Assembly: GCA_963823665.1 (NCBI GenBank) | Contig: CAWGMQ010000003.1 | Location: 1,184,001-1,248,000, forward strand | Reading direction: 5' to 3' | Source of the DNA: an uncultured Planctomycetota bacterium | Lineage (GTDB): Bacteria; Planctomycetota; Planctomycetia; Isosphaerales; Isosphaeraceae | Length of the DNA: 64,000 nt | Shown here: one piece after another, positions 48,446 to 56,623 of the stretch | Position numbering within the stretch: position 1 is the stretch's first letter | Layout: every line of letters begins with the position of its first letter | Translations under genes and position numbers: made by a program | The notes under the pieces: generated by a model | Told to the model about the DNA's origin: nothing | Seen by the model: only the letters and a program-made list of their open reading frames with translations | The model's database searches: none

Positions 48446-48647
48446 TCACGACGCCCAGCTCTCAACTCTCAGCCCCGGTACGGCGGATAGATCCGCGTCG
48501 GTGGTCGCGACGCTACAATTGCCAAGACTCAGGGCGATCGCGGCAATTTGAAGGTCGATCGCTTGCATCGGGCGACCAATTCGACGCAGCTCTGCGAACA
48601 GCCTCCCGTAGACTCGTGCGGCCTCGGGCGTATAAGGCCAGCCTCAC
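48446..48647 (-). pseudogene. VapC/PIN-domain toxin remnant lacking its N-terminal half
   Basis: 48640..48446 translates as WPYTPEAARVYGRLFAELRRIGRPMQAIDLQIAAIALSLGNCSVATTDADLSAVPGLRVESWAS*, a PIN C-terminal half. The GTG start overlapping the upstream TGA is only 7 nt away and out of frame. Confidence 0.8.
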
Positions 48648-48969
48648 GGGAATAGGGCCTCGATTCGCCGCGCTCGCTCCTCGAACTTGGCGATCTCGGA
48701 TGCTTTCTGTGCTGCCCGAGCAGCTTGCCACTCCGCTTCTTCGGCAGGCGTCATCTCGAGCGGCGGAATCGCGTCAAACTCGGCGATCCAATGGGCGATC
48801 GACTCCGGATCATCGGCCTGCTCGTCGCCTGTCGTCCCGAGAACGTCGGGCGCATCTTCCCGCATCACAACAACACGGCATCCGTCCGGCCAGTCCGCCA
48901 GACCGTCGAGGATGAATGCCCGTTCTTCCAGATGCCAGTCAGCGCCGTCGCGTCATCGGATGCGCCCAT
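48644..48969 (-). CDS. Probable antitoxin (apparent 1-nt deletion near 48917)
   Basis: GAGG SD; MGASDDATALTGIWKNG + FILDGLADWPDGCRVVV joins the acidic ORF 48644..48868. GTGA overlap with the PIN remnant. Confidence 0.65.
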
Positions 48970-49053: not shown

Positions 49054-50433
49054 CTAAATCCCCTCACGAGATCTCAGAGTCGAATCAGCCCGAGTTGAAC
49101 CACTACTCTCAGATTCGCTGAAATGGGCCGTCGTCTCGAACCAGCCCGCCGAAAACAAGGCAGCGGTCTTCTGATGCTGGAGCAGCCGCCAGGCGTCCGG
49201 CAAATCGAGAACGCGAACGATCCGCGCATCCCGCCCTTCACGGGACCGGCAGACAAGAGATGCATGTTCCAGCACCGGCTTGCTCAGTCGAGCGAGCAGT
49301 TCCGGAGAATGCGTGGTGGCAACGACCTGAATACCCTTCTCCTTCACCTGAGTTTCTATCAGGTCGAGAAGCAGATTGAGGCGGCTCGGGTGGATTCCGC
49401 TCTCAAGCTCCTCGAAGAAATAGAAAGACGATGGATTCGGCCCTAGGAACGCCGCAAGAAACGCCAGGAACCTGAGCGTTCCATCGGAGGCCGAGGCAAA
49501 ACTCGTCTTTCGCCCGTTGCGTTCGACCATGGTGGCAGCGATCTTTCCGGATGGGCCTGCCGGAAACTCGAGGTCGACCACGTCCATCGACGTCAGCTCC
49601 TGGACCCAGGAAAGGAGATTCATCTTAGAAGCATGAGACGCACAAATCGCAAAGAGCGCCGAGCTCAGATTGCTTCCGTCGTCGCTCAACCGATCATGCC
49701 CAGGCAAAGACGGCTGGCAGAGTGCATCGAGCGACCAGTGAAAAAAACGGCAAGAACGATAAATGCTCAGCGCCTGATCCAGATCCTGGCTCACTTCTTT
49801 AAAATCAGCCACATGATCATGGAATCTCCTTGAGCGGCCGTGCCAGACCGCGGCATGGTCAGCCGGCATCTTCGCCGCAACCGCCATCTGGCCCAAAACT
49901 GGCAATCCGTTTGGAAAATAGAATTTTTGGAATGAATCAGTTGCAAGACCATACTCTCGGATCCTGACGACTTGATGCGTGCGATCTCTCACCTGGCTCG
50001 TAAAAATGCGGCCAAGCGCCCCGAACCCGAGCGACTCCGAACGGATTCTAGGAATTGACACTTTTCGATCGATTGCCACCTCGATGTGATAGTTTACAGT
50101 TTCCAGGCCAGACTCCAGTTCGCCAGAAAAGCCAATCATGTCAGCGGGGAGCGTGCTCTCGCCCGTGAGCGCAAATGAATTCTTGCCCGAGAAAGCGATC
50201 CCTTTGCAACCGCCTTTGATGCCTGCCCAGAGGCGCTGCCCGCCCTCCTCGATTTTGCCATCGATAGTCTCGGTCAGTTCGTAGGCCCGCCCAATTCCAT
50301 GCAAAAACCGAAACGCATCGCGAAGGTTGCTCTTACCCGACGCATTCGCCGCGATCAACACCGTGAACGGCCCAAGCTCGAGCTTGGCATCTTTGAAATT
50401 CTTGAATCGTTCCAATCGCAACGACTTGAACAT
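49054..50433 (-). CDS. ABC-type AAA family ATPase (AAA_21/RecF-like, defence-associated type)
   Basis: LERFKNF, Walker A IAANASGKSN, signature ASDGT, Walker B FFFEELESGIHP and H-loop TTHSP. Confidence 0.85.
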   Translation of the reverse strand: MFKSLRLERFKNFKDAKLELGPFTVLIAANASGKSNLRDAFRFLHGIGRAYELTETIDGKIEEGGQRLWAGIKGGCKGIAFSGKNSFALTGESTLPADMIGFSGELESGLETVNYHIEVAIDRKVSIPRIRSESLGFGALGRIFTSQVRDRTHQVVRIREYGLATDSFQKFYFPNGLPVLGQMAVAAKMPADHAAVWHGRSRRFHDHVADFKEVSQDLDQALSIYRSCRFFHWSLDALCQPSLPGHDRLSDDGSNLSSALFAICASHASKMNLLSWVQELTSMDVVDLEFPAGPSGKIAATMVERNGRKTSFASASDGTLRFLAFLAAFLGPNPSSFYFFEELESGIHPSRLNLLLDLIETQVKEKGIQVVATTHSPELLARLSKPVLEHASLVCRSREGRDARIVRVLDLPDAWRLLQHQKTAALFSAGWFETTAHFSESESSGSTRADSTLRSREGI

Positions 50434-50600
50434 CGGCCGGCTCCTCTCGATCGTTATCCGCATTGTATTCGGTGTGGCTCGGCCGAATGACGTAATGACA
50501 CAAGGAAACCCAAACGGTTCAGCCGGTTACACTTAAGTGACCGAAGCACCAATCGCCCGCAGAACTCACTCCCCGGTGCCCAAAACCCGCCCAAAGCAGC

Positions 50601-50629
50601 TTGAACCTCGCGCACCGCGCGGCTATGAT
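50601..50629 (+). promoter_or_regulatory. sigma70-like promoter upstream of the RbfA-like leader
   Basis: TTGAAC-N17-TATGAT. A GGCACC/GGTGCC hairpin begins at the expected start site (~50636). Confidence 0.6.
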
Positions 50630-50706
50630 TCTTACGGCACCCAAAAAAGCGGTGCCCTCACTTTCTCTCTGCCAAGCCAGCTCTCATACAGCACAGGAGG
50701 CCGGCG

Positions 50707-50829
50707 ATGTCTTCGATTTACTGCATGAGTGTGCCGTCGAGCCTGCATCGCGCGCCAGGGCGCCCTGAAGCCCCTGTCTCCGGGAAAACGCATCCTGCGT
50801 TCTCGGCGCGCGTCTCATTGACTGACTGA
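50707..50829 (+). CDS. Putative 40-aa leader peptide (uORF)
   Basis: Perfect AGGAGG at 50695-50700, 6 nt before ATG; MSSIYCMSVPSSLHRAPGRPEAPVSGKTHPAFSARVSLTD*. Confidence 0.5.
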   Translation: MSSIYCMSVPSSLHRAPGRPEAPVSGKTHPAFSARVSLTD

Positions 50830-50955
50830 CTGAACGAAGTCGCGTCGATCCAGGCTCACATCACGGCGGAACCGATCAAATGCGGTCCGAGCGGTCGGGC
50901 TGCGCGACGATGGGTGCCAGCCCCCCCATCGAAGAATCGATCTTCATTTGAAGGA
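50733..50955 (+). promoter_or_regulatory. Structured 5' leader / candidate attenuator
   Basis: GAGCCTG-c-ATCG (50739-50) pairs with CGAT-c-CAGGCTC (50846-57); GCCGT/ACGGC outer stem; CGCGCGCC/GGCGCGCG inner stem; CGATGGG/CCCATCG hairpin. Confidence 0.45.
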
Positions 50956-50967
50956 ATCGGTATCAGT

Positions 50968-51444
50968 ATGAGAGCAATCGAAAAATATCGAGGACCGTCC
51001 ATGGCCGAGGTCCATCGTTTCTGCGCCTCGCTCGGCGAGGAAGATGGTGAAGATCCCCATCTGGCGAAGCGGCGGCGGCCCAACAACAAGCGCGCCTCAT
51101 CAAACTCGGTCCCCGTCGCCCGGCTCGAGCGCAAGGCCTGCCAGCTCTGCCGCCAGGTGGCCGAAACCCTCGATGAAGTCCTGGCCGACTGTGGCGACGG
51201 CGTGCTGCGAGCGCTCCGGGTGGCGACCGTCGTGCCCTATCCAAACGCGTCGCGACTGCTCGTGACCGTCGCTCCGGTCGACGGCCGGCTCGCACCCGAG
51301 GCGGGACCGAAAGTCGTGCTGGACCATCTGGAAAAAGCCAGCGGTCACTTACGCCACGAAATCGCCGCGGCCGTCACCCGCAAACGCGCGCCGCTCATGT
51401 TGTACCGACTGGCCGAGCCCGCACTCGAGGGCGCTCAGTCATGA
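50968..51444 (+). CDS. RbfA-like protein (divergent ribosome-binding factor A family member)
   Basis: RKACQLCRQVAETL...LRVATVVPYPNASRLLVTV...LEKASGHLRHEIAAAVTRKRAPLMLYRL follows the RbfA KH-II pattern, with an extra N-terminal Cys/acidic/basic extension. Confidence 0.7.
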   Translation: MRAIEKYRGPSMAEVHRFCASLGEEDGEDPHLAKRRRPNNKRASSNSVPVARLERKACQLCRQVAETLDEVLADCGDGVLRALRVATVVPYPNASRLLVTVAPVDGRLAPEAGPKVVLDHLEKASGHLRHEIAAAVTRKRAPLMLYRLAEPALEGAQS

Positions 51445-52244
51445 CCCGGCCAAGGGCCAGGATCCGGCCTGTCACCGTGATCCTCGTGCTCGCGATTCTG
51501 GTCCTCGGCGTTCTTGTCACGGTCCAGCAGCGCAGGGAGGCGCGGCTCAGGCAGGCCCTCGCGCTGTTCCGGAATCGGGCTCATCAAAGTATCTACAAAC
51601 GCCTCGACGGCCCGTCTCCGCCCATGGGCACTTCGCCAAGGCTATCGCTCAATTGGGGCGCCACCGCCCCGCTGGAGGAGGTGATCAGCCAGCTCAAGCT
51701 CTTCACCAACCGGAGAACCACGCGCTTGAGATCCAGCTTCCCGATTGAGGTCGACTTCGCCGGTCTGGCAGAGTCGGGTCAATCCCTCACCTCCCTCGTG
51801 CGGCTTCCCCCGGAGCCGAGCCAAATCCTATCTCTCGACGAATTCATGCATCACGTCCTCGAGCCGATGAATCTCGATTTCGAGATCAGGGATGGCGCCC
51901 TTTTCATCACCTCTCACGTGGCCGTGGAGCGTTCTCATGATCGCATTCTTAAGTTTCTCGACCAGCCGGTTTTGCTGACCTGGCCCGACGGAGCATCCCT
52001 TGACGATGTGATCGCAGCGGTCCGATCGAGCACCATGGGACCTGAATTCCCGCTCGGCCTGCCTATGTATCCGGATCCTTCCAGTGTGGACGACTCGGAC
52101 TTGAAGACGGTCGTCGCACCCGCACCGAAACAGAGTGTTCCCGTCTGGGAGCACCTGGTCCGCATTCTGTCGCCGCTGCGAATGAAATTTGAGCTCAGAA
52201 ACGGGGCCCTCGTCATCCTTTCGCGGCCGCGACGGGAAGAGTGA
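51441..52244 (+). CDS. Membrane-anchored hypothetical protein with two STN-like domains
   Basis: One N-terminal TM helix; two copies of L.W....L..V...(L/F)P...D.......L..M.(L/M).FE.R.GAL.I.S. ATGA overlap with the RbfA-like gene. Confidence 0.6.
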   Translation: MTRPRARIRPVTVILVLAILVLGVLVTVQQRREARLRQALALFRNRAHQSIYKRLDGPSPPMGTSPRLSLNWGATAPLEEVISQLKLFTNRRTTRLRSSFPIEVDFAGLAESGQSLTSLVRLPPEPSQILSLDEFMHHVLEPMNLDFEIRDGALFITSHVAVERSHDRILKFLDQPVLLTWPDGASLDDVIAAVRSSTMGPEFPLGLPMYPDPSSVDDSDLKTVVAPAPKQSVPVWEHLVRILSPLRMKFELRNGALVILSRPRREE

Positions 52245-52337
52245 CAGAAAATCCACGGCGGTCGCTCCGATTAAGTTTCAGGTGGTCGCACGGCTTCGAT
52301 GCGCTTTCCCGACAACGTACGCTGGAGTTCTCGCGAT

Positions 52338-52838
52338 ATGAAATCGGGCCCGCGGATACGACTCAGCTCGCTGCTTCTCCTGCTGGTGGTACTTGGCCTC
52401 TTTTTCTGTCTATTCCTTCAAAAACGCCGCGAAAGGGAGCTCCAGGCAGCGATCTTGCCTTACCGCGATCAGACCGCGGAAGCGATCTTCACCACCCTGG
52501 ATCAGCCACTCGCGTTGACCTATCCCGACGGAACACCGCTGCAGGATGCGTTGAAGAACATCAGGCTGTGCTCAACCGGACCGAAGCTGCCAGCAGGCTT
52601 ACAAATCTATGTGGATCCATTCGGCTTGGCGACAGCAAATAAGACAATGAAGTCGCCCGTCAAGAAGCCGCGGGACCAGAGCCTTACCCTCCGCGAACAT
52701 CTGTCTGAAGTCCTCAAGTCCCTGGGGCTCGGGTTCGCGATCAGGGGTCGAGGCCTGGTGATTACTTCAGAGGATGCCGTGCATCTTCAACCGGAAGACG
52801 ACCCATATCTCGGCTACCGCGACGTGCTGCAAAAGTAA
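52338..52838 (+). CDS. Membrane-anchored hypothetical protein with one STN-like domain (paralog of the previous gene)
   Basis: N-terminal TM helix followed by QKRRERELQAA; LDQPLALTYPDGTPLQDALKNI...LQIYVDPFGL...LGFAIRGRGLVITS. Confidence 0.6.
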   Translation: MKSGPRIRLSSLLLLLVVLGLFFCLFLQKRRERELQAAILPYRDQTAEAIFTTLDQPLALTYPDGTPLQDALKNIRLCSTGPKLPAGLQIYVDPFGLATANKTMKSPVKKPRDQSLTLREHLSEVLKSLGLGFAIRGRGLVITSEDAVHLQPEDDPYLGYRDVLQK

Positions 52839-55451: not shown

Positions 55452-56516
55452 TCACTCAATCACCACGCGTGCCGCGCAGCCCTCATCGTCCCCCGCCTCG
55501 TCGACCCCGATCTTCCGATCCAGAAACGCACCAATGGTCTCAACGTTGGTCCGCAAATGCTCGGTCACGTGCGACACGCTGAATTCACTCCGTCCCCGAG
55601 CAAACGCCAGCGGCAGCAGGATCTGGTCGGCCGAGTGCAAATCGACCGCCGCGTCAGCGACCGATTCGAACCCCAGAAGCTGATCGACCGCCTCCTCAGC
55701 GACCGCCTCTGCAGGCTTCCCGCGCTCTCCCAGACCCACGAACGTCGCCGGCACCGCACCTTCGTGTTCGACAATCAGCGATATCGCAGCCCCCTGCCCC
55801 GGCCCGCGCCAGCGCACCAGCTCGATCTCACACGATAAGCCTTCCGAGCCCAGCCGGTCGATCGCGCGCTTGCGCATCCGTTCCGCGATGTTGTCAGGAA
55901 GATTCGAGACGCCCGCGACCCCGTGCAACTTGAGTAGCGGACCTCGAGTGATCTGCACGTAGCTCGCAGGAACCCCCGGCCCAATCACGGCCTCGATCTT
56001 GCCCCCGCCCTTGGGATAGAAACCCGCAGTGAGCATCGTCAGGTCCAGCGGCATCCCGAAGGCCCGGAGATACCCGCGCCAGGTCGTCTCCAGAAACGAG
56101 AACGCCGGGGCCATCGGGTTGAATGTTCCACCTTTCAGCCGCAGCGTGACCGAACGATCGCCCCGCAGGGCCATCGGCAAGTGCAGCGTTTGCAGCACCA
56201 GTCCGGTCGACCCCGCTGTGCCGATGTCGATCGTCAGATCCCCGGGAACATACTCGCCCGGCGCAAAGGAAATCTCGCGAGCCCCAAGCCGCGCGTCAAC
56301 AACTTCGGCTCGCCCCAGGAGCGCGGCCGTCTCGACAGCCTTCAAATGCTGCGGTCGAAGCCCGGGCTTGGACCGGTTGGCCCTGATCTTTTGCATGCGA
56401 AAAGAGCGGCCGGTCAAGAGCGAGAGGGTGAGTGCAGTGCGCAGGATCTGGCCTCCGCCCTCGCCGCGCGACCCGTCCAGCTCGATCTTGGCGCGATCAC
56501 CTCGCGACGATGACAT
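55452..56516 (-). CDS. rtcA: RNA 3'-terminal phosphate cyclase
   Basis: LDGSRGEGGGQILRTAL, IRANRSKPGLRPQH, GTAGS, GGT, GFYPKGGG, ADQ and HLRTN. Confidence 0.95.
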   Translation of the reverse strand: MSSSRGDRAKIELDGSRGEGGGQILRTALTLSLLTGRSFRMQKIRANRSKPGLRPQHLKAVETAALLGRAEVVDARLGAREISFAPGEYVPGDLTIDIGTAGSTGLVLQTLHLPMALRGDRSVTLRLKGGTFNPMAPAFSFLETTWRGYLRAFGMPLDLTMLTAGFYPKGGGKIEAVIGPGVPASYVQITRGPLLKLHGVAGVSNLPDNIAERMRKRAIDRLGSEGLSCEIELVRWRGPGQGAAISLIVEHEGAVPATFVGLGERGKPAEAVAEEAVDQLLGFESVADAAVDLHSADQILLPLAFARGRSEFSVSHVTEHLRTNVETIGAFLDRKIGVDEAGDDEGCAARVVIE

Positions 56517-56623
56517 CGAAGCCCGCCTCCCGCACACCTTCCGGCCCACATCACGCTTGATAGAGCATTATAGAGCGCACGCGGTTCGGGCCAGACGCGA
56601 GAAACGGCCAGTGGGAGTCAATC

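Follow-up and report, generated by a model that had tools for sequence, protein, structure and literature searches.

Comparative sequence analysis of a 64,000-nt stretch of DNA from an uncultured planctomycete (the window) points to a conserved, covarying leader on an uncharacterized RbfA paralog, itself the invariant partner of one RtcB subfamily, and we regard this as the durable finding. We consider it probable (about 0.6) that the leader is a ribosome-dependent translational attenuator that would induce the RbfA paralog upon stalling at the initial codons in an upstream open reading frame (uORF). The original prediction had proposed, from the window alone, that ribosome behavior on the uORF and at its stop codon controls the gene; ribosome-dependent control did emerge as the likeliest function, whereas the stop-codon mechanism proved to be an accident of the window copy. 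Two helices missing from that proposal (1:2 and 3:4) would carry the logic of the switch, and the link to RtcB had likewise been overlooked.

The elements first described in the window, namely the promoter, the hairpin, the Shine-Dalgarno (SD) sequence, the uORF, the TGAC run, the stems, and the GAAGA/TCTTC/GAAGGA motifs, were all found there, and the promoter, the SD-led uORF, and the long stem are above chance (Table 1). The putative promoter, TTGAAC-17-TATGAT, has 9/12 consensus matches, and 3 kb contained two such sites against 0.7 expected. The 355-nt leader folded with a z score of -3.2, and equal stability was reached by 0/100 shuffles. Its MFE structure includes the long stem (50739-50754 with 50841-50857); a second stem (50749-50756 with 50805-50812), proposed as a competitor of the first, is present and mostly coexists with it in that structure. 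The uORF and the RbfA-like gene (ATG at 50968) share a frame, with 46 sense codons between them. There are three tetramer x3 repeats in the window, and all-frame stops arise from any TGAN x3. The GAAGGA region is the likely SD of the window's clade; the alternative pairings proposed for TCTTC at 50941 are available in the window and were not seen as a conserved element in relatives.

Table 1. Features of the leader and its surroundings, in window coordinates
Feature	Position	Strand	Remark
Putative sigma70-type promoter TTGAAC-17-TATGAT	50601..50629	+	Predicted from sequence
5' hairpin GGCACC/GGTGCC	50636..50656	+	At predicted transcript start
GCTCTCATAC	50680..50689	+	Perfect 10-bp complement of 50966-50975
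Segment 1 (uORF SD, spacer, ATG)	50695..50709	+	Partner: segment 2
uORF, 40 codons	50707..50829	+	AGGAGG 50695-50700, ATG 50707, TGA 50827-50829; 20 codons in same-genus relative G029
Segment 2 (CCGTCGAGCCTGCATCGCGCG)	50734..50754	+	Partner: segment 1 or segment 3
TGA equal to G029 uORF stop	50766..50768	+	Out of frame in window
TGAC x3.75 microsatellite TGACTGACTGACTGA	50819..50833	+	TGA in three frames
Segment 3 (CGCGTCGATCCAGGCTCACAT)	50841..50861	+	Partners: segment 2 (for its 5' part) and segment 4 (for its 3' part, which overlaps the former)
GAAGA 50931 / TCTTC 50941 / GAAGGA 50950	50931..50955	+	Alternative 5-bp pairings
Segment 4 (GTATGAGAGC)	50966..50975	+	Start codon and codons 2-3 of window gene
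RbfA-fold paralog, 158 aa	50968..51444	+	N-terminal extension with conserved D-G-x-D-P motif
rtcA (RNA 3'-phosphate cyclase)	55452..56549	-	Convergent, 4 kb from window gene

The Rfam search that had been suggested yielded no match to the leader at E<=5; the window was without a match in Rfam 15 at gathering thresholds, and four related loci gave two subthreshold matches and nothing above. The leader would represent a broadly distributed family of cis-regulatory RNAs that Rfam lacks. With a 66-nt RNA model, the window's genome yielded no further copy (next best, E=0.07), and when the model was run on 151 genomes of the phylum, G349 was the sole true leader among 29 non-self matches inspected, the remainder being chance-like. 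A plasmid search gave no match.

The window protein is, on the evidence of its predicted structure, a protein of the RbfA (type II KH) fold, as originally proposed. The AlphaFold model of the 158-residue ORF had a mean pLDDT of 74.8 (74-95 in the core), all four of its Foldseek matches at E<=0.001 were RbfA structures, and VIA aligned it with 2dyj_A over 89 residues (Z 12.0; rmsd, 1.9 A). By sequence, the protein missed the cutoffs of PF02033 (14.9 versus 34.7 bits) and of the NCBIfam RbfA model (16.1 versus 196), and no relative turned up when the PDB was searched by sequence; its relative L227 exceeded the PF02033 cutoff at 35.8 bits. It resembles RbfA (PF02033) in the order of its fold elements and in an ASGxLR...RxP region that aligns with the canonical RbfA of the same genome, but it differs in its N-terminal extension, in being encoded alone or with rtcB rather than in an infB operon, and in its patchy distribution. 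The separate canonical rbfA that had been anticipated (100 bits) is located on a different contig (C8), where it lies downstream of an ORF labeled IF2 by eye and read as the C-terminal part of IF2, and the window gene is therefore a paralog. Genes of this kind were present in 80/121 genomes of the window's family, 122/301 of its class, and 29/251 of its phylum, and a profile search returned 1,114 representatives (50% identity clusters) at E<=1e-10; database entries name the family members "ribosome-binding factor A" or not at all. Genome G250 carries three copies (L044, L045, L047), each with its own 21-codon uORF, and an RtcB gene follows two of them.

The leader recurs well outside the window. 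Of the 30 closest loci, 28 have an upstream promoter with the same 17-nt spacing (family consensus TTGATC-17-TATGAT), and an SD-led uORF begins about 72-92 nt past the -10 box. Under our scoring rule, a uORF was recognized in 63 of 96 oriented genome loci, including 49/58 in the family, as expected from the original prediction, and 14/38 in other families of the class; a recognizable uORF leader was absent in 33/96. Five of the 63 were dropped (four short overlapping uORFs of another type and one unclear start), seven uORF starts were set by hand, and the genome loci together with 36 metagenome loci made up 94 leaders, of which 88 were distinct. The metagenome loci were retrieved with a leader-only pattern, and of its 107 matches, 32 had an RbfA-like gene downstream according to tblastn, 2 more did so by eye, and in a further 2 a SpoU methylase gene took its place. 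Among 28 held-out loci from other classes, six combined a uORF with an anti-SD of -10 kcal/mol or lower, several of the rest had one part only or appeared leaderless, and most of the 28 were without a recognizable leader. One locus (L008:1267) has ATT in place of the uORF ATG, with the rest of the leader intact.

In 78/88 leaders the uORF spans 16-24 codons and ends in TAG, TAA, or TGA. The window's uORF is longer because one base, between 50760 and 50761, is missing relative to G029, whose uORF of 20 codons stops at the TGA equivalent to window 50766-50768. The missing base may be a real change or an assembly error: public read sets contained at most 17% of words, and 50664-50927 was not spanned by any contig. 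These assemblies carry indels, as the RbfA-like gene is split between frames in G029 and rtcB is split between two frames in the window's own genome (G000:C4:1597775-1599086; L210, L211). The window and G029 leaders are 83% identical, with segments 1, 2, and 3 nearly the same in both. Across leaders, the uORF peptide showed no conservation beyond the RNA-constrained codons 10-13. The core of segment 2 starts at position 3 of codon 11 in 77/81 leaders, codons 11 and 12 each encode Ser in 49/57, codon 11 is TCG in 49/49 of the former, and codons 2-9 vary freely; selection thus acts on the RNA and on ribosome position, not on the peptide.

Other upstream arrangements were seen at related genes. 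A second leader type, about 60-75 nt before the gene in another planctomycete family (L059, L060, L063, L066, L071, L072, L075), has a strong SD and a uORF of 24-46 codons that overlaps or abuts the RbfA-like start. At L047, L049, L061, L064, L073, and L076, the sigma70-type promoter upstream of the uORF or gene is replaced by a recurring GAACC-N16/17-GTC, which we take to resemble an ECF sigma promoter. Finally, in five loci of one family (L281, L282, L287, L292, L293), the ATG is preceded at a distance of about 7-8 nt by a -10-like TTA(G/T)(A/G)NT, which makes the gene look leaderless.

Three overlapping helices covary in the leader. In helix 1:2, the uORF's own ribosome-binding site (RBS; AGGC-CGRCGA) pairs with codons 10-13; in helix 2:3, GAGCCUG (codons 11-15) pairs with CAGGCUC downstream of the uORF; and in helix 3:4, GCUCUCAC, which overlaps CAGGCUC, pairs with the SD region of the main gene. 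The homolog of segment 4 in relatives, GTGAGAGC, is that SD region. Variants on the two sides of helix 3:4 track each other (CUCUCAC/GUGAGAG, CUCCUC/GAGGAG, CUCCCAC/GUGGGAG, CUCCCCUUG/CAAGGGAG). We compared cognate with swapped partners, using either the consensus of a segment or its distance from the start codon as anchor (swap test). Dereplication at 70% identity left 61 leaders, and in these each of the three helices outperformed swaps at p=5e-5, a value that, like all of the swap-test and covariation p values here, is too strong because the leaders are related. Since the metagenome pattern includes the 1:2 complement, the tests were redone on 41 dereplicated leaders chosen through the protein only, with the following results: -13.9 versus -12.2 kcal/mol for 1:2 (p=5e-5), -17.2 versus -14.1 kcal/mol for 2:3 (p=5e-5), and -9.3 versus -8.3 kcal/mol for 3:4 (p=0.0015). 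Six control pairings in the same leaders gave p=0.20-0.78.

Column counts agreed for two of the helices. Helix 2:3 was 87.6% paired with 11 double changes, and helix 1:2, in a gapless 57-row alignment, was 83.7% paired with 12; each was matched by 0/500 shuffles. On 37 compact leaders, 1:2 failed to exceed shuffles on most measures, and RNAalifold recovered just four pairs of 2:3. The long stem of the original prediction belongs to helix 2:3 and is conserved and covarying in relatives. Separated by length, the 3:4 swap test gave p=5e-5 in 28 compact leaders and p=0.066 in 33 long ones, the window's class; the window's own 3:4 pairing has an energy of -8.6 kcal/mol. The 5' segment at 50680-50689, which closes the entire window leader when it is folded globally, was rejected as a conserved anti-SD, as its pairing lacked covariation in relatives (swap test, p=0.55; null in long and compact leaders). 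Taken together, these comparisons argue that mutually exclusive helices link the uORF to the SD of the main gene.

Folding models with a ribosome mask (27-nt footprint) gave the corresponding exchange of helices. In 28 compact leaders, a mask at codon 1 gave P(2:3) of 0.82 and P(3:4) of 0.18, and one at codon 3 gave 0.78 and 0.21; with the mask at codon 8 the values were 0.07 and 0.53, and with the mask at codon 11 they were 0.00 and 0.54. P(3:4) stayed at 0.52-0.54 over codons 8-14. Because a mask on segment 2 necessarily releases segment 3, the informative part of these values is the capture of segment 3 by the RBS. P(3:4) was higher at codon 11 than at codon 1 in 19/27 compact leaders and lower in one. 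In long leaders with pair span limited to 170 nt or less, the P(3:4) shift had p=0.0006; with unrestricted folding, this class showed no switch. Effects on the RBS itself were weaker. In 27 compact leaders, shifting the mask from codon 1 to codon 11 raised the cost of opening the SD by 0.60 kcal/mol (an increase in 12 and a decrease in 5; Wilcoxon p=0.17), with p=0.007 relative to shuffles; in 32 long ones the increase was 0.45 kcal/mol (p=0.28; relative to shuffles, p=0.09), and global equilibrium walks of RBS opening gave a small effect or none. For the window, local folding took P(3:4) from 0.00 (mask at codon 1) to 0.54 (mask at codon 8; 0.70 in G029), while global folding placed the start codon in a 10-bp helix (-18) with 50680-50689 in every state. 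The models thus predict the helix exchange, give RBS opening weakly, and extend to the window copy only under local folding.

We envision the attenuator as follows. In untranslated nascent RNA, helix 1:2 would form first, before segment 3 exists (a folding order that we infer), and 3:4 would then close the main RBS (OFF). A ribosome moving through codons 8-14 would strip segment 2 from its partners and again permit 3:4 (OFF). With a ribosome halted at codons 1-3, segment 1 alone would be covered, so that 2:3 could form and the main RBS would be left free (ON). Since the uORF peptide is not conserved, such a sensor would answer any failure to leave the start codon, and candidate inducers include initiation-arresting drugs and damaged or immature 30S subunits.

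The same helices could instead report lost uORF traffic, that is, uncoupling from RNA polymerase, with an output mainly at the transcript level, e.g., through Rho termination, as proposed for PA5471.1-armZ. Naked leaders do favor 2:3 (0.60 versus 0.34 for 1:2 in compact leaders; 1.00, and not 1:2, in the window), so the absence of ribosomes could also give the ON state, and the changes in RBS accessibility noted above are small. However, segment 3 covaries with the SD itself, no terminator-like site was found on the + strand of 49500-52500, and helix 1:2 is conserved although an uncoupling sensor has no need of it. We consider this explanation unlikely.

It is somewhat less likely still that the switch functions in relatives and has decayed or been rewired in the window's clade. 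In this reading, the start codon is shifted 12 nt upstream, 3:4 is weakened, the uORF is frameshifted, and a new long-range helix holds the start codon; in the window, the opening cost changed by -0.4 kcal/mol for the SD window and by +1.2 kcal/mol for the start-codon window. Against decay, segments 1, 2, and 3 of the window hardly differ from those of G029 (leader identity, 83%), local folding still yields 3:4 at codon 8 in both, and an assembly error may account for the missing base, given that rtcB of the same genome is likewise split between frames.

Autoregulation, in which the RbfA-fold (KH-type) protein would repress its own leader when its 30S target is not free, is improbable. The window protein has an RNA-binding fold, and leader autoregulation is common among ribosome-associated proteins, but the same leader also precedes an unrelated SpoU methylase, and the fixed codon register of segment 2 suggests a translating ribosome.

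Two remaining explanations were ruled out by comparison across leaders and have very little probability left. In the first, poor UGA-C termination or the all-frame stops would sense RF2, with readthrough into the in-frame gene; the arrangement holds for the window sequence, two single-member database proteins (P0013, P0024) are open across the spacer, and a degenerate (TGAN)4 run stands at the equivalent position in G029, but the frames of uORF and gene are distributed 30/30/28 across 88 leaders, UGA-C occurs in 12/88 and tandem TGAC in 1/88 (the window), both other frames are stopped before segment 3 in 19/61 against 15 expected, and the G029 uORF terminates 57 nt ahead of its run. The in-frame relation, the UGA-C context, and the TGAC run thus lose the functions first assigned to them, and the run appears to be a genus-level feature outside the conserved switch. 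The second, Ser sensing or a Ser-specific arrest peptide at SSS in codons 10-12, draws on the frequent Ser codons described above, but codon 11 lacks synonymous variation, Leu, Pro, Met, or Gly replacements exist (several retaining helix 1:2), and a stall at SSS would favor OFF in the mask model; the conserved Ser-Ser-Ser is better read as an RNA-level constraint.

The translational attenuator that we favor probably works like those of ermC and toiL while standing outside any named family. The ermC leader (ErmCL) has four segments, with 1:2 plus 3:4 OFF and 2:3 ON. The leaders studied here share with it the SD-led uORF, the four segments, and, in the proposed model, the release of a downstream SD as output, but they lack a conserved arrest peptide and would control an RbfA paralog; moreover, their segment 1 is formed by the RBS of the uORF itself, which places the predicted inducing stall at codons 1-3, unlike in ermC. 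In the available text of the reports concerned, ribosomes held at the start codon (by tetracycline, retapamulin, or lincomycin) are sensed by the uORFs of Escherichia coli toiL-topAI, where toiL pairs directly with the topAI RBS (PMC12121999), and of Bacillus subtilis vmlR, which is terminator based and is also induced by ribosome assembly defects (PMC9226507). As far as those descriptions go, the sensing of start-codon-held ribosomes is shared, whereas window-type leaders relay the signal via an intervening segment, have a longer uORF, and are unrelated in sequence and target. If this is correct, the switch is a candidate sequence-independent reporter for initiation-stalled ribosomes.

In other planctomycete lineages, an RtcB-family ligase gene directly follows the RbfA-like gene, often with overlapping stop and start codons. 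The pair was found at 11/40 class-level loci outside the family, 11/28 held-out loci, and 6 metagenome loci. In 301 genomes, the partner RtcB had 18 matches; each of the best 15 (E<=1e-73) immediately followed an RbfA-like gene, and none of the 3 weakest did. The motifs DxH, DxGCG, GNHF, HxGSR, HRK, and HGAGR, the catalytic motifs of RtcB, are invariant in 24 partner sequences. In the genomes searched from the window's family, no RtcB was found beside the RbfA-like gene; the window's genome itself yielded neither the partner subfamily nor a PrfH above the cutoff. A SpoU-family RNA methyltransferase gene stands behind the same uORF and helices on two metagenome contigs (L176:835-1559, L189); its single planctomycete relative is located behind another ORF, and no such leader was seen in the 600 nt before it. 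Convergent rtcA was within the fetched flank of 22 related loci; its proximity may be plain synteny, and a link to the leader and the RbfA paralog is uncertain.

The RbfA paralog and RtcB possibly form an undescribed ribosome-repair module. The accessible portion of Tian et al. 2022 (PMC9304027) describes repair of the 30S subunit by RtcB2-PrfH and five RtcB clusters without substrate. Judged against that portion, the two systems are alike in being two-gene modules whose ligases best match the same NCBIfam models; they differ in that the partner ligases here fall below the cutoffs of TIGR03073 (about 190 versus 407) and PRK09588 (145 versus 271.8), the partner has an RbfA fold, and the window's locus is without a ligase. 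The Pseudomonas PA5471.1-armZ-prfH operon, according to the text available in PMC12057347, combines leader-peptide control by ribosome stress with an RtcB-like gene; transcription attenuation is proposed, PrfH is the partner, and ArmZ is an anti-repressor. Compared with that account, the first gene of the window-type module is RbfA-like, and behind the ligase no release factor gene turned up (0/15 downstream ORFs gave such a match). RbfA is described in part of PMC7145577 as a gatekeeper of the 30S subunit, and, by analogy, the window protein may bind 30S in the same manner and act in repair or re-maturation, possibly together with an RtcB ligase of its own in many lineages. A more speculative extension, against which we would bet, if not heavily, is a third route of ribosome repair, in which the RbfA paralog would replace PrfH as the partner of its own RtcB subfamily and hold the split, damaged 30S open for ligation and re-maturation, while a portable RNA switch that does not depend on the peptide would induce the module by counting ribosomes that cannot leave a start codon. 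For one RtcB subfamily, the present comparisons supply a partner gene that is invariant and a prediction of the inducing signal, which makes a directed test possible. In titles and abstract openings of the open literature (subscription journals and supplements lie outside this scope), we found no description of the paralog or leader; in the text available from the one paper combining RbfA, RtcB, and planctomycetes, RbfA is named only in passing (PMC8421152).

Several other genes surround the paralog in the window. On the - strand, 49054-50463 encodes a divergent AAA_21 ATPase with weak MAD3/PtuA similarity, a possible defense gene whose relatives flank the RbfA-like gene in seven loci, and 48446-48868 contains a small acidic ORF and then a VapC-like PIN fragment, apparently 5' incomplete, a possible toxin-antitoxin remnant. 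On the + strand, 51441-52838 holds two related ORFs that have a hydrophobic N terminus and match nothing in Pfam or NCBIfam. Relatives are present in 11 family loci, and the upstream one of the two overlaps the stop codon of the RbfA-like gene (ATGA).
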